DNA from: a virus
Taxonomy: Duplodnaviria; Caudoviricetes
Direction: 5' to 3' (one strand)
Virus record (IMG/VR): IMGVR_UViG_3300020011_000226
Span: 1-64,000 of that record
Length of the DNA stretch: 64,000 nt
Shown: positions 7,594 to 55,600 of the stretch, in pieces
Position numbering within the stretch: the stretch's first letter is position 1
How the letters are laid out: every line of letters begins with the position of its first letter
The notes under the pieces: generated by a model
Databases searched by the model: none
Told to the model about the DNA's origin: nothing
What the model saw: only the letters and a program-made list of their open reading frames with translations
Made by a program: the position numbers and the translations under genes

Positions 7594-9519
7594 ATGAAAA
7601 GACAGGTTGCAACAAACAGGTTTTCTGTTTCTACGGTGAAAGATGGTGAGGATGGGGCGAGCACAGCAGTAGTTGTGCTCACCCCCTCTGTTATACCCAT
7701 AAAGGTACAGTCTACTTACTATAAGACAACTGAAAGTCAGACATTTCTTATTGGTGTGAGTCTTCAGGTGGGAAACAGCTATGCAACAATTACCTCTATT
7801 ACCAACACTTCGATCTCAGATATTTCCATATCAAATTTTGTAACAGAGAACAGAATAATAATCAAAATTCTCGGCAATGTGTTATTTTCAGCAGCGGCTA
7901 ATTCTACCATCACAGTGACAGGTGTGCTGAGCGGTGTTACCTACACAGCTATGGCAACACTGCAATTGTATCCCAATGTGATGGGTTCAGACGCTGTAGA
8001 ATACAGGTTAGAATGCAGTACTTCTACGGTAGTATTTGAAAAAGGGTATTCTGGAACTATAATTGCCAATCCTGCTAACTATACTTTACAGCTGAGGAAG
8101 ACAGAAGGCAGTACAAGCTCTGTTTTAAGCAGCTTGCCAAGTGGTTACTACCTGAAATACAAAGAGGGTGATGAGGGTGTTTGGGATGATTGTGGTTTGG
8201 CGGAATATAGTGCTCTTTCTGAGCTGATGGAGGGCGCATTGTCAAAGATAAGCTACGGTCTTTTTTGTGGTACTACCCTCTTGCAGAAAATAACAGTAAC
8301 ATCCCAGTGGAATTATAACAGGATGCTGCTACCGTCAGGAACTTATATTGATAAACAATATACACGTGATGATACCAGTACACCCCTTGTCTATTATAAT
8401 GGAAGCTATTGGTATTTAGTGGCAGACAACAACGTGGTTAGCCTTGCTAATGAGGCTCCATCATCACAGAGTACTGTATGGAGGCAGGCTACTGAGTACG
8501 AGGTAGTGCTTACAAGAATGCTCTTTGCAGACTTTGCCCAAATGGGAGGTTTTATTGTATATGGAGACTATTTTTTCTCCCGTTATGGGTGGCTCATTCC
8601 TTCTTCTGGAGATGATATAACTGTGGACTCCACCAATGTTGATGATGGCATAACCTATGGTGGTAAAGTACCTTATGGTTGGTTTGACAGCAGTCATCCA
8701 ATGGCAGAGACCTCTCCCAGCACAGGCTACTATTTCAGGCCTATGAAGCTTGTCAATGCTGTGACAGGAGAGGAATGGATGGCAGGTGGCAAGGTGCATG
8801 TAGACAGTGGGGGTAATATGACAATCCAGAATATTTCTGTCCAGAATGCTTTTGTTAGCGGAAGCCTTATGGCATACCGGGTAATGACTAAAAGCACTGC
8901 AATTTCCTCTGGGACATCTTTGTACACAGCACGGCTATACGATGTTCCAGAACTATCTACTACAATAAAAAGACTGCCTTTTACATTGGAGTGTGACATA
9001 TTTATTTTGACTGGCCCGTATGATGACCAGAATCACAATAACTATAGTTGGTACGGCCATCTGATAGAGCTACCTCCTGCAAGCTTGTTTGTAGGCGCGA
9101 GAATTAAAATAATCAACGGTACTTATAAGCAAGAGAGTGGCAAGGCAAAAGAGAACATCCCCAGCATTATCAATTTGATGGTGTGGCATCCAGACATGCC
9201 TGGTGGCTATACCCCAGAAGATTATGCTTTATATAATCCTGATGGAATAGATTACAGGCACGAGAACAGCGGAGATGGAAATATAGCTATGAACAGCCTG
9301 CATGTCCCCATTCCGTTTGAGGGCTGTAATGCTAATGGCGATACTGTTGTTTATTACTATGGTGACTGTGAACATATCATTTACAAAGACTATGAGTCGG
9401 TGGAACTTGTGGCGACTGTCAATCCTTTTCAGGGCAGCTATAATCCAAACTTCACAAACTATAATGAAAACAACTATGTGTGGATGGTTATTGGCATGCA
9501 GAAAAGGACAGTACAGTAA
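7594..9519 (+). CDS. Putative tail fibre/spike protein
   Basis: 641 aa, KDGEDG linker, YNGSYWY..P..W module, FAQMGGF repeat, variable C-terminal domain. Confidence 0.6.
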   Translation: MKRQVATNRFSVSTVKDGEDGASTAVVVLTPSVIPIKVQSTYYKTTESQTFLIGVSLQVGNSYATITSITNTSISDISISNFVTENRIIIKILGNVLFSAAANSTITVTGVLSGVTYTAMATLQLYPNVMGSDAVEYRLECSTSTVVFEKGYSGTIIANPANYTLQLRKTEGSTSSVLSSLPSGYYLKYKEGDEGVWDDCGLAEYSALSELMEGALSKISYGLFCGTTLLQKITVTSQWNYNRMLLPSGTYIDKQYTRDDTSTPLVYYNGSYWYLVADNNVVSLANEAPSSQSTVWRQATEYEVVLTRMLFADFAQMGGFIVYGDYFFSRYGWLIPSSGDDITVDSTNVDDGITYGGKVPYGWFDSSHPMAETSPSTGYYFRPMKLVNAVTGEEWMAGGKVHVDSGGNMTIQNISVQNAFVSGSLMAYRVMTKSTAISSGTSLYTARLYDVPELSTTIKRLPFTLECDIFILTGPYDDQNHNNYSWYGHLIELPPASLFVGARIKIINGTYKQESGKAKENIPSIINLMVWHPDMPGGYTPEDYALYNPDGIDYRHENSGDGNIAMNSLHVPIPFEGCNANGDTVVYYYGDCEHIIYKDYESVELVATVNPFQGSYNPNFTNYNENNYVWMVIGMQKRTVQ

Positions 9520-50823: not shown

Positions 50824-50874
50824 AGTACAAAATGTTATCCTGATAATTGTTATCCTGTCAAAAGTACTGGCAAT

Positions 50875-51046
50875 AAAAAGCCAGTAGAGGGAAAAATCCC
50901 TGTAACCATATTGTGAGACTGGGCTACAGGGCTATCCTTCTACTGGACTATATTGTTGGAATTTCTTCCTTCAACTTCTATGTCTGTGCAATCAGTCTCA
51001 CCTGGATTACTGATGCAAAGGTACACATTTATATCTAATTGACAAA
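50875..51046 (-). promoter_or_regulatory. Leftward promoter plus structured leader with terminator (attenuator-like) ahead of the Rep-like gene
   Basis: -33 TTTG 51046-51043 and -7 TACCTTTG 51023-51016; long stem 50881-50946 plus U-run; loop 9-mer complementary to leader 50993-51001. Confidence 0.65.
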
Positions 51047-51134
51047 CAAAATTTTGGAATATTTTGCTCGAGGAAAAGTTAAAGTTTGTTTATATATTGA
51101 TAACTGTTTTGTTTTCAAAAAGTTATGGTTTTTC

Positions 51135-51382
51135 TTTGGTAGACTGAAAAGTTTTCAATACCTTTGCAGGTGAATTGGAAAGCGTTTAGCTCTATCCTGC
51201 ATTGATGAATCTGGACAATCCATCTACTTGCACAGGGTATTGAGGGACGCTCTCCTCTTGGTAGGACTATACTTTGGTATAAGAATATCAGGAGAGTGAG
51301 CTATACTTTTACCTGAAAGCAAGTGGCAGTCCAGAGCCAAATCAATGGCAGGTAAAAGCGGAAAAAGACTCACTCTCTTTTT
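51135..51382 (+). promoter_or_regulatory. Rightward promoter plus structured leader with terminator and alternative pairing
   Basis: -33 TTTG 51135-51138 and -7 TACCTTTG 51159-51166; stems GAGAGTGAG/CTCACTCTC and CTTTTACCTG/CAGGTAAAAG plus T5; 51196-51239 complementary to 51310-51352. Confidence 0.65.
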
Positions 51383-51424
51383 GTGTGTCTATGCTTCCTG
51401 AAGTAATAACTAAAAACTAAAACA

Positions 51425-52252
51425 ATGAAAACAATTAAAGAATGGGCCGAGTACTATAAGTGTAAAGGAATATGGGTATTCCCATTTAATCAAAGTAGTT
51501 TCAGTTGGAATGATTGGCGGGGCAAATCACAGGAAACGTATCAAAAGGAGTTTGATTCCTACAATTGGAAAGATGCCGAAAAGTTGTTAATGGTAGCTGG
51601 GGGTACTAAAAGAAAGGCTGTATTTGTCATTAACAACCTGAAAGACAAGAATATAAACTATGTCTATCGGCTTCTAAAGGCCGCATTATCTGAACTTGGA
51701 TTACCTTCTGGCTATCCTTGGGTTGTTTGGGATAAAAGTATTTTAGGCATTATTGTAGACATATTCCCCGATGTTCAAGGAAAAGCTTTTGAGATTCATG
51801 CCAAAAGAGTGTCTATCATCTGGGAGAAATCTTTTACTGTACCATCCCCTAACTCTAAAATAGATTTCTGGAGTGGCCGTAGGCCTGAAACTAGACCAGA
51901 GCAGGTTGATAGTGGCAGACTAATAGAGGTTGCTAAGAGTTTTCACGAAAAGTATATTGAAGCGAAAGTACATAAGAAAGAAAACATGGCAGAAGTTTCT
52001 GACAAGATAAATAAAGGAGGTGAGTCGTATTTTGAGAAGACTTCATACTGGTATCTAAATAAACTCTTAGGCTTGGTTGGTTTAATAGGGATAATATGCT
52101 ACCTATTCTCCTATTACTATGGCATGACAGATATATTTAACATGGCAACTGTAGGATATTTTATAGGTCTAATACTTATAGTTGTCTTTGTAGTTATGGG
52201 AATAATAAAGATGGTAAGAGGCATAATCAACAAAAAGAATGGTCATATTTAA
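51425..52252 (+). CDS. Degenerate Prim-Pol-like N-terminal domain fused to two C-terminal TM helices
   Basis: AEYY..KGIWVFP....W.DW...MVAG pattern; two hydrophobic helices at the C-terminus. Confidence 0.5.
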   Translation: MKTIKEWAEYYKCKGIWVFPFNQSSFSWNDWRGKSQETYQKEFDSYNWKDAEKLLMVAGGTKRKAVFVINNLKDKNINYVYRLLKAALSELGLPSGYPWVVWDKSILGIIVDIFPDVQGKAFEIHAKRVSIIWEKSFTVPSPNSKIDFWSGRRPETRPEQVDSGRLIEVAKSFHEKYIEAKVHKKENMAEVSDKINKGGESYFEKTSYWYLNKLLGLVGLIGIICYLFSYYYGMTDIFNMATVGYFIGLILIVVFVVMGIIKMVRGIINKKNGHI

Positions 52253-52574
52253 AGAATTACGTAGGTACGAAAAGCGTATAGAAGAAAAGAATAAAAATCG
52301 TAATTGGAGTAATAGAGATTATTTTGCCCGCCAAGAATTGTCAGAAGAAGAGAAAAGCAGATATGTAGAAAGACAGAGCAATATATCTGTTCCTAAAAAA
52401 TCAACAGCAATACAATTACTGTGGCAGAACATGTTATACACAGTAGGGTGCATGGGGCAAGTTGCATTTGTTCTTACTTCCATCGTTTTAATTGTATTGG
52501 TAGGTAGTTATCTGACAAAAGGATGTAGTTCTTATACTGATACTGACCATGTCCATTTTGAAAGATACAAGTAG
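52239..52574 (+). CDS. Single-pass membrane protein
   Basis: Charged N-terminus, TM helix near the C-terminus; overlaps the previous gene. Confidence 0.6.
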   Translation: MVIFKELRRYEKRIEEKNKNRNWSNRDYFARQELSEEEKSRYVERQSNISVPKKSTAIQLLWQNMLYTVGCMGQVAFVLTSIVLIVLVGSYLTKGCSSYTDTDHVHFERYK

Positions 52575-52605
52575 AAAAAAGGGAGAAGGTTTAGTACCCT
52601 CTCCC
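52575..52605 (-). terminator. Intrinsic terminator of the RNAP/cargo operon
   Basis: GGGAGAAGGT/ACCCTCTCCC stem with A6 on its left (U-run on the minus strand). Confidence 0.65.
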
Positions 52606-52661
52606 TCAACAAACAACAACACTTGCAGGTTATCAAGACAGCAAAACTGCCTTGCACAATA

Positions 52662-55600
52662 TTATTTACCTCTAATTCTCCTGCCATACTCAAAGCCTGA
52701 AGCAGCATCATAAGGATGAGTGAAAGTGTACCATGACCTAAGATAAGGACATAGCCTCATGAACTGGACTTTCCATTTTGGATCACCCTCTTCATACTTA
52801 CCTTCCTTGGACTGCTGATAGTAAAGGTCAGCATTGCTTAAATCTGGATTACCTCCAATAGCATCAATTTGAGTGTCTACAAACAGCTTGGCAATATCCC
52901 AGATGGCTTTAGCTCCAGAGAGTCCTACAGGCACATAGTCAAGCAGAGAAGAAGCCTCATTCCACATACCTCTTGGAGTGTTGAAAGCTTCCTGCTCTCT
53001 ATCCCACCTGTTAGTGAAATAGTAGATAATACCAGCAAGAAGGTTACCAGAAGTATCATTACCAGCATCCCCATCCTCATCTTTGTCACCAAGACCAAAG
53101 TGTCTTCCTGGGGCAGACAGGAATTTCATCAGCATCAGAGCCTGAATAATTAGGAAGTCTGCACCAGTTCTACGCATATTATAGTACTGGTTCTCAGAGA
53201 ATCCTGCCTTCAGCATATCAGCTTTCAGCTTCTCTCCATAGTTCTTATTGAAGAGCATAGGGGGAATAGCTGCCAGCATAAAGGCTTCACCCACAGCTTT
53301 CCAGTTATCCATGTTGTTAATATCATAGAAGGCAGACATCAAGACTTTAAATGCTGTATCATAGTTTCCTTCCACTACCTTGCCCTGAGGAACATTAAAC
53401 TTACTGCCAGCATATCTTCGGTTAATCATACCTAAGGCATACCCACGCATGGATGTTACAAGGCTACCATAGAAGTTCTGTTGGAAAGTAACTTTGTCTT
53501 CTGAGTTATAGATACCATGCAGTCTGTTACAGATATTACGGCATTTATCCATAAACTCTGACTCATCATCGGCATTAAACACATACTCTCCAGATTTTAG
53601 CTGCAAGGCACTCTTCAAAGTCTCCAACTGCTTGACTGTCGTAGGAACAGCAAAACCTTCATCAGCCAAGCACTCTCTTTCTGCATCAGAGAACATATTA
53701 AGAGCTACAGGATTACTTCCTCTTGCACCAGGGTTATTCAGATAGAATCTCTCAACTCTTTCCAGCATACCTTGTACAGTATCATACTTATCTATGTCAG
53801 CGGCATTGCGGAAGATGCCATCCTTCAGCTTTAGTTTTTTGGGTGTCCTGCCTAACATATCTCCAGAAGCATTGTCTATTGCAAACACCTCATCACCATC
53901 CACTATCTCATAGGCATCAATCAGTTTCATGGAATTACCTTCATGGTCATATACCCTCATCTTATTGCCCATTGCATAGTAAGGGATAGTTTGCATATAG
54001 TGATCTCCACTTGAATAAGGAAGCATCATGGTATGGGAGAACCAACTCCATAGTCTGTTGTCCAAGACACTCATAGCTTTGGTGTCATACTTCTGGTCAT
54101 GCAGGAAGCTCCTATTTTCACTAAGGATGTTCCAGTGCCTGATCCATAAAGAGTTTTTGTCATCTGGTCTTTGTACATTGGCAAGGCTTAATCCCATTGT
54201 CTTCATAAGGCCATCAAAATACATCTGATGGGCAACATTCACATCAGCCATAGAGAAGTTCTCCCCTGCTACTGCCTCCTTGAATATCTCAAACATACCA
54301 GTGCCAGTATTGACAATTCCACCGTGGAGATTGCCGTAAAGTAAAATTCTACCACCAATAGAGGAAAGATTATTGGCAAGCTTTCTCCACATGCCTTTTC
54401 TGTCCCAAGAAGGAGGGTCTACATTAATACCATATATTTGCTTCTCCAAGAATTTGACATACCTACTGTAGGCTCTCGACTCTTCTTCTCTATTAGCCTC
54501 AATCTTATTACCCACCTTACGCTGCTTCAACACATCTCTTCCTAACTCAAAGATGTCTACTACCTGCTCCATAGCTTTATAGGTTGCAGCCATAGAGCCA
54601 TAGGAAAGCATAGTACCAAAGAGGTCAGTAGACAAATCCTCCATGTTTTTCAGCTTATTGATGCCATAAAGAGGAAGCCTGTTTACCTTCTCCCTCTCAA
54701 AGAACATAGGATTCTCCAGAGGGTCTTCCGTAATCTCATTGAACTCATTGTTAGAACCAAAGAGATAGGCTTCATCAGGACGTACTGCCCAGAAGTCTTG
54801 GGCTTTCCTTCTCATAGCATGACCAAAAGCAGGTAAGCTATTGCCCATTTGTGCTCTCAGATTCCTAAACCTATGTGAGAACCTGCCAGTCATTTGAGGT
54901 GCTCTCCAACGTACAGTAGCATTCTGAGGAAGCAGGCTGTCCATTTCATCCTTTAATTCCATAAAGGCATTATACCATTTAAGCCTTTTAGTCCTCTCAG
55001 CTACTTCTTGAGCAGTTAGGCTAGGATTGGTAGTGTCAAACAAGGCATCCCATTGGCTATTATGATACTTTACGTGGTTAGGAACCATTCTCTTCTTTCC
55101 TAAGGCAGACTTATCCTCTTCAGAGTTTTCTTCATGCCACCTCTGCCATTGAGGATCTACAAAGTTATGATAGAAGATAGCTCTCTGTTGGTCAGTTAGG
55201 CTAAAGGTGTACCCAAGAACTCCTTTGTTGGCCTCATAGGCTTTTCTTTTCAGTTCAGCAAGATACTCATTGAAATCTCTTTTTAGCTGTTGAGCAAACT
55301 CATGGCGAGCCTTCTCCCATTCTCCATAGTTTACTCGAGACACAAGGTTGCCTGTCTTAGTTCTATGACCTTCAGTATCTACTGTTTCTTCAAAGAGCAT
55401 GGTACAATCAGTACTGCCAAAAGCCTCCTGCATCTGAAGCCTTAAAGCTTCTACCTGATCCCAGAACCTTGAAGCAATTCTGTCAGCCTGCATATTAGCA
55501 TTCTTAGTTACTTTATTGCCTACTGCTGTTACAAAGTCTCCACAGTCAGCAGCTGAACTAAGATACCTGTCAAGCCATGATATATCCTCATCCATAGAGT

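Follow-up and report, generated by a model that had tools for sequence, protein, structure and literature searches.

A candidate zipper-type transcription attenuator ahead of a two-gene operon in a crAss-like phage

The rightward leader of a divergent intergenic region in a phage that is crAss-like and of the Bacteroidota type is tentatively read as a cis-acting transcription attenuator, with a zipper-type layout, of a two-gene operon (probability about 0.45). Its sequence features hold up and exceed chance, and the attenuator built on them is a prediction from a single sequence. In human and animal guts, crAss-like phages are the most abundant phages, and to our knowledge their gene regulation is largely unknown beyond the virion RNA polymerase. 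If the leader works as proposed, a phage of the crAss group would join host-polymerase promoters with RNA attenuators for a replication-related module, and the zipper-type layout, reported until now only from Gram-positive conjugative plasmids, would be extended to phages of Bacteroidota.

The analyzed window of 64 kb is the first part of a 117,540-bp virus record classed by IMG/VR as a provirus. Crassvirus major capsid, muzzle, and cargo proteins were present in the Pfam search of the phage, and its capsid protein shares about 60% identity with those of crAss001 and IAS virus. Elsewhere, the genome encodes a normal replication module (family A polymerase, Toprim primase, DnaB-like and SNF2-type helicases, and UDG). 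A tyrosine integrase with Arm-DNA-bind_5, SAM_5, and catalytic domains occupies genome positions 115189-117540 (L006 11189-13540) where the provirus record ends, and has as neighbors an HTH_17 excisionase-like gene and a DUF6549 gene; the terminal integrase and excisionase-like pair suggests a temperate, integrated crAss-like phage. The only tRNA called in the phage is Arg(TCT) (L005 16794-16869), and no tRNA or tmRNA was called in the leader region. Both leaders lie in one 600-bp divergent intergenic region, 50824-51424. The features of this region and of the rightward operon, in window positions and with RNA structures as predicted, are as follows.

50879-50948, minus strand: terminator-like hairpin in the leftward leader, with a U-rich tract behind it
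51016-51023, minus strand: TACCTTTG, -7 element of the divergent leftward promoter
51135-51138, plus strand: TTTG, -33 element of the rightward Bacteroidota-type promoter
51145-51157, strandless: 6-1-6 perfect palindrome TGAAAAGTTTTCA in the rightward promoter spacer, the sole perfect copy in the 64-kb window
51159-51166, plus strand: TACCTTTG, -7 element of the rightward promoter
51177-51255, plus strand: upstream hairpin H1 (-24.3 kcal/mol), which coexists with the terminator and holds the 5' arm
51196-51352, plus strand: long imperfect hairpin (rod) of 53 pairs, 5 of them G-U, the antiterminator conformation
51256-51293, plus strand: central hairpin H2, at the apex of the rod, which zips outward from it
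51292-51377, plus strand: nested terminator hairpin of a 9-bp basal and a 10-bp inner stem (-33.2 kcal/mol alone)
51292-51300 with 51369-51377, plus strand: outer terminator stem, GAGAGTGAG with CTCACTCTC, a perfect 9 bp
51306-51315 with 51349-51358, plus strand: inner terminator stem, CTTTTACCTG with CAGGTAAAAG, a perfect 10 bp
51378-51382, plus strand: T5 tract after the terminator stem
51425-52252, plus strand: first gene behind the rightward leader, 275 aa, with an N-terminal Prim-Pol-like domain and C-terminal transmembrane helices
52239-52574, plus strand: second gene of the rightward operon, a small membrane protein of 111 aa matching no family

The promoter at 51135-51166, called canonical in the initial annotation, is present, and its type is the TTTG/-7 promoter of Bacteroidota and not the sigma-70 -35/-10 arrangement; the spacer from TTTG to TACCTTTG measures 20 nt. 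By the usual Bacteroides spacing, the transcript probably starts near 51172-51175. The extended box TACCTTTGCA of this promoter occurs at four further sites in the genome, one of which is the divergent leftward promoter. From its start to the ATG, the rightward leader is untranslated for about 250 nt, with a structured RNA part of about 210 nt. Because the other listed phage promoters ahead of start codons stand only about 15 to 50 nt from the codon, this leader and the leftward one, of about 190 nt, are exceptional. The palindrome at 51145-51157 is a possible operator for a dimeric DNA-binding protein, and TTTTCA half-sites also lie nearby at 51111-51118; given this operator-like sequence, the rightward promoter may be controlled at the DNA level as well.

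The leader of about 210 nt ending in a terminator and T5 was found with all its features in place. The predicted terminator hairpin and its T5 tract stand 43 nt ahead of the ATG at 51425. There is no host-type -7 box between the tract and this codon, so expression of the downstream genes by the host polymerase would need read-through.

The arms 51196-51239 and 51310-51352, previously noted as antiparallel and complementary, bear this out with 30 pairs at -39.5 kcal/mol. Dinucleotide shuffles gave -19.7 ± 3.4 kcal/mol, and none of the 1000 reached the native value; among 5342 windows of the phage genome, the native arm pairing was beaten only by the arm's own reverse complement. The alternative pairing segments form a chain, CCUGCA at 51196, CAGGGUA at 51233, UACCUG at 51310, and CAGGUA at 51349. 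Folding of the whole leader had a z score of -3.7. In the minimum-energy fold, the long pairing abolishes the terminator wholly, with the rod consuming its part 51292-51352; the inner stem is lost, as the initial annotation had proposed, and the outer stem is disrupted too. The two exclusive conformers, the rod at -74.7 kcal/mol and H1 plus terminator at -66.1 kcal/mol, differ by 8.6 kcal/mol. The mutual exclusion of terminator and long-range pairing thus stands, whereas the equilibrium ensemble holds one dominant fold, which the initial annotation had named as part of an outcome speaking against its reading, with long-range pairs at P = 0.998 and terminator pairs at about 5e-6. When the upstream 120 nt were shuffled, the terminator survived in 276 of 300 cases (92%), and its complete loss is therefore a property of the native upstream sequence, with a chance rate that is not negligible, as 8% of the shuffles abolished it also.

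Switching would rest on folding kinetics, which are only estimated here. During synthesis, H1 and H2 together were the minimum-energy fold until about 51311, and the rod was better thereafter. The barrier out of H1 (findpath, upper bounds) was 8 kcal/mol at length 51321 and at least 18 kcal/mol at later lengths; since it rises with RNA length, the decision window for commitment to the rod is short. In an RNA that misses this window, the remaining sequence would be expected to fold into the terminator, and H1, formed first, could keep the RNA committed to termination.

In the proposed mechanism, the host RNA polymerase would start at the putative TTTG/TACCTTTG promoter, and the nascent RNA would form H1 and then H2, from where two fates are open. 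In the first, the strands beside H2 would zip into the 53-bp rod, consuming the 5' half and the loop of the terminator, and transcription would read through into the genes. In the second, H1 would persist, the terminator hairpin with U5 would form, and an RNA of about 210 nt would be released. Read-through would be the likely default because the rod is the thermodynamic ground state, and termination would be promoted when H1 is stabilized or the 5' arm is occupied by a protein, an RNA, a ribosome, or fast elongation. The analysis shows the sequence elements, the non-random complementarity, the strand asymmetry, and the energies; a working promoter and terminator, both outcomes in vivo, and a factor that selects one of them are inferred.

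A candidate for that factor was sought in the phage. Its proteins gave no match to PF02357, as would be expected of a NusG-like factor such as UpxY or LoaP. The minus strand of 51172-52900 holds no TAnnTTTG box, hence no antisense promoter of that type opposite the leader. The two upstream ORFs, 12 codons at 51203-51241 and 18 codons at 51344-51400, were considered as possible leader peptides for ribosome-mediated attenuation; they have no repeated codons and no AGGA ahead of them, and the rod places both start codons in pairs. In sum, no candidate effector was found in the phage among NusG-like genes, antisense promoters, or regulatory codon patterns of these ORFs.

The attenuator reading gains support from the leftward leader, which follows the same logic and is nearly isoenergetic in its two states (-49.7 versus -48.9 kcal/mol, with 82% terminator in the ensemble). 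The back-to-back arrangement described in the initial annotation was confirmed, as the mirror-image leader follows a divergent promoter whose -7 box is the same, and its 5' part can pair with the inside of its terminator; the 5' 9-mer concerned (50993-51001) is exactly complementary to the loop of the terminator-like hairpin at 50879-50948. The two leaders share a design principle. They have no significant shared sequence, local alignment being no better than for shuffles; a common motif was rejected on this ground, and for the same reason no effector site common to both is evident. On the minus strand at 50859-50866, shortly past the leftward terminator-like hairpin, there is another -7-like box, TACTTTTG. 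It has no clear TTTG -33 element, and it could allow terminator-independent expression of the first leftward gene.

Against the attenuator, the terminator conformer is negligible at equilibrium (about 5e-6), and the RNA may always read through. This leads to the main rival, in our estimate rather unlikely, which is a constitutive structured 5' untranslated region, in which every transcript folds into the rod and none into the terminator, and the structure serves as an mRNA stabilizer or an RNase III-type processing site. Sites for double-strand RNases of the RNase III type occur in the early mRNAs of phage T7 and in the lambda N leader. The dominance of the rod over the terminator, by 8.6 kcal/mol and with the ensemble probabilities given above (0.998 versus 5e-6), fits this explanation, as does the build of the rod, which has no multi-helix junction, unlike ligand-binding aptamers. 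The pLS20 attenuator likewise reads through by default. However, the explanation leaves without a role the perfect 9-bp and 10-bp stems placed exactly before T5, H1 is the first structure to form and raises the barrier to the rod, and the leftward leader has a matching terminator arrangement.

The leader could also be a stand-alone small RNA of about 210 nt that acts in trans, with the downstream genes expressed via leakage or a phage-specific promoter, and this we consider quite unlikely. Many Bacteroides small RNAs come from 5' untranslated regions through early termination, and the leader combines a strong promoter of its own with a 3' end resembling a terminator and matches no Rfam family. 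Set against this are a predicted ground state that lacks the terminator, the want of a separate host-type promoter for genes lying 43 nt downstream, and the failure to identify a target or a second copy of the leader in the phage genome.

Searches for RNA families and relatives gave the following. Rfam returned no match in 51135-51400 at E values up to 10, and nothing relevant over 49-53 kb with permissive E values or over the whole 117.5-kb genome at gathering scores; a weak match to a miRNA model at 50879-50948 was discarded, as it reflects only the leftward hairpin. The intergenic region had no blastn match among phage records, tblastn of both flanking proteins had none among phages, and the leftward protein had none in plasmids either. 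Viral, genome, and metagenome contig collections scanned with the flanking proteins, alignments, and a DNA pattern contained no relative of the leader, which therefore has no support from covariation or conservation. The suggestion of an undescribed class of noncoding RNA was not supported: Rfam had no match, though the leader is a single sequence with no relatives found, and its layout fits a published type of attenuator. The scans returned two homologues of the first rightward gene with genomic context, and both lack a comparable leader. In L002, the homologue directly follows another gene, and in L003, the 230 nt ahead of it show no unusual structure (z = -0.37). A third candidate, L007, is GC-rich and unrelated, a match by chance. 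Homologues of the two flanking genes at 58-38% (P0002, P0003, P0004, P0006, and P0155) are encoded on Logan, ENA, and JGI contigs, the closest being in Logan and ENA assemblies. Upstream of the distant homologue in L003, positions 540-700 contain a frame resembling the C-terminal end of a formylglycine-generating-enzyme or C-type-lectin-like domain (...RGGSW...GFRLAL), possibly a gene remnant.

A genome-wide scan of intergenic folding, noisy at 10 shuffles per window, showed several other regions at least as structured as the leader, which was accordingly rejected as a unique structural outlier of the phage. A second divergent TACCTTTGCA promoter pair is found at genome positions 112021 (minus) and 112153 (plus), within 111949-112762 (L006 ~7950-8760). 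Between a further promoter at genome position 112591 and the next one at 112727 lie about 130 nt of noncoding sequence with strong structure, which may be a small RNA. A noncoding stretch of 970 bp, genome 92664-93633 (L005 8664-9633), lies behind promoter 93448 (minus); it begins much like a tRNA 5' end, and neither ARAGORN nor Rfam calls anything there.

The 275-aa product of the first rightward gene resembles Prim-Pol domains over residues 1-185 (ESM Atlas; feature score 0.96, TM 0.76-0.77 by query), and its C terminus is hydrophobic. It had no match in Pfam or PHROG or in a profile search of PDB sequences, its AlphaFold model (pLDDT 44.8) was too poor for a structure search, and only three relatives were present in 5.8 billion protein clusters. 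The leftward genes encode a 248-aa protein, an RNase H, and a P63C protein. The 248-aa protein consists of two winged-helix domains in tandem (model pLDDT 94.7); fold searches returned generic winged-helix matches only (Z < 7), with RepE-type initiators at a TM of about 0.3, so that a Rep-like identity is no more than possible. No recognizable repressor/Cro pair was found among the flanking genes of both leaders. Ahead of many start codons, by 2 to 10 nt, stands the motif (A)AGGATAAC, with sites at window positions 923, 1628, 2719, 14817, 50840, 50855, and 57462 and at genome positions 101359 and 104183; the winged-helix gene has two of them in tandem ahead of it. The motif probably combines a Shine-Dalgarno-like AGGA with a conserved spacer. 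Such an AGGA ahead of starts is unusual for Bacteroidota.

An extended form of the attenuator reading, which we regard as improbable, takes the two leaders as a matched pair of kinetically controlled attenuators gating replication-start genes, with the winged-helix initiator or regulator and RNase H on one side and the membrane-anchored Prim-Pol-like protein on the opposite side; whether the prophage, of a temperate phage in this view, begins replication would then be set by how the RNA folds, and not only by a repressor. The proposal of the initial annotation that the back-to-back leaders form an RNA-controlled switch between lysis and lysogeny is very unlikely. The divergent promoters with identical -7 boxes, each followed by an attenuator-like leader, are in keeping with it, and so are the provirus record and the integrase beside an HTH_17 excisionase-like gene, by which the phage may be temperate. 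Yet the flanking genes are replication-like (RNase H, Prim-Pol-like) or generic winged-helix and include no repressor/antirepressor pair, the integration module is 60 kb away, and the leaders lack both significant common sequence and an evident shared effector site. As nothing ties the leaders to the decision, the proposal is left unsupported. Also very unlikely is a DNA-level element (a cruciform, a replication origin, or a primase-loading hairpin) or a chance inverted repeat: the position between the winged-helix and RNase H genes and the Prim-Pol-like gene and a cumulative GC skew that peaks near 52-53 kb would suit the former, but the skew change coincides with a change in gene orientation, the structure sits exactly between promoter and start codon, and the rod at -63.6 kcal/mol is some 20 kcal/mol stronger on the transcribed strand than the mirrored structure on the minus strand (-43.8 kcal/mol) owing to its 5 G-U pairs, which argues for RNA rather than DNA, while the shuffles (0 of 1000 at the native pairing) make chance unlikely.

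Among known systems, the lambda nutL/nutR RNAs with N and the HK022 putL/putR RNAs make the polymerase resistant to terminators further downstream. The phage region resembles them in its two divergent promoters, each leading into a structured RNA and then a terminator ahead of the first gene. It differs in that the leader RNA is predicted to compete directly with one local terminator, and in having no motif common to both leaders, no Rfam match, and no NusG-like factor among the phage proteins. Leaders of the trp type work through 1:2, 2:3, and 3:4 pairings of their segments, and the rep leaders of pT181 and pIP501 are under countertranscript control. As in these attenuators, the phage leader has a chain of exclusive pairings in which the upstream pairing would decide on terminator formation. 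Unlike in trp-type leaders, the sole ORF in segment 1 has 12 codons and no repeated codon, and segments 1 and 4 also pair, enclosing 2:3; unlike in pT181 and pIP501, no antisense promoter box (TAnnTTTG) lies opposite the leader.

The closest likeness is to cATT_pLS20, the zipper-type attenuator in the leader of the conjugation operon of pLS20 from Bacillus subtilis and of related Gram-positive plasmids (bioRxiv 10.1101/2025.11.24.689506). There, a long imperfect central stem-loop stands between a weak upstream stem-loop and an intrinsic terminator, and the complementary sequences flanking it lengthen the central stem into an antiterminator (bioRxiv 10.1101/2025.11.24.689506). The antiterminator is the default, with 3% termination in vitro, and an oligonucleotide against the upstream arm raises termination to more than 90% (bioRxiv 10.1101/2025.11.24.689506). 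The phage leader has the same three parts, an upstream stem-loop, a central imperfect stem-loop, and a terminator just before the first gene; its central stem, H2, likewise would grow into the antiterminator, here the 53-bp rod, and remove both flanking hairpins, with the antiterminator again the expected default. The two show no sequence relationship, one belonging to a phage of Bacteroidota and the other to a plasmid of Firmicutes, and the genes downstream are those of the Prim-Pol-like membrane protein and the 111-aa protein and not the conAn antitermination genes; conservation among relatives, a trait of the pLS20 type, was not seen for the phage leader in L002 and L003. The upstream hairpin H1 is strong in the phage (-24.3 versus -6.4 kcal/mol in pLS20), with both its strands entering the rod, and the conformers are 8.6 kcal/mol apart, compared to similar energies in pLS20. 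Whereas cATT_pLS20 has been tested experimentally, the phage leader is a prediction from sequence. By this analogy the phage leader, not filed as a member of the pLS20 plasmid family, would work like a zipper-type attenuator.
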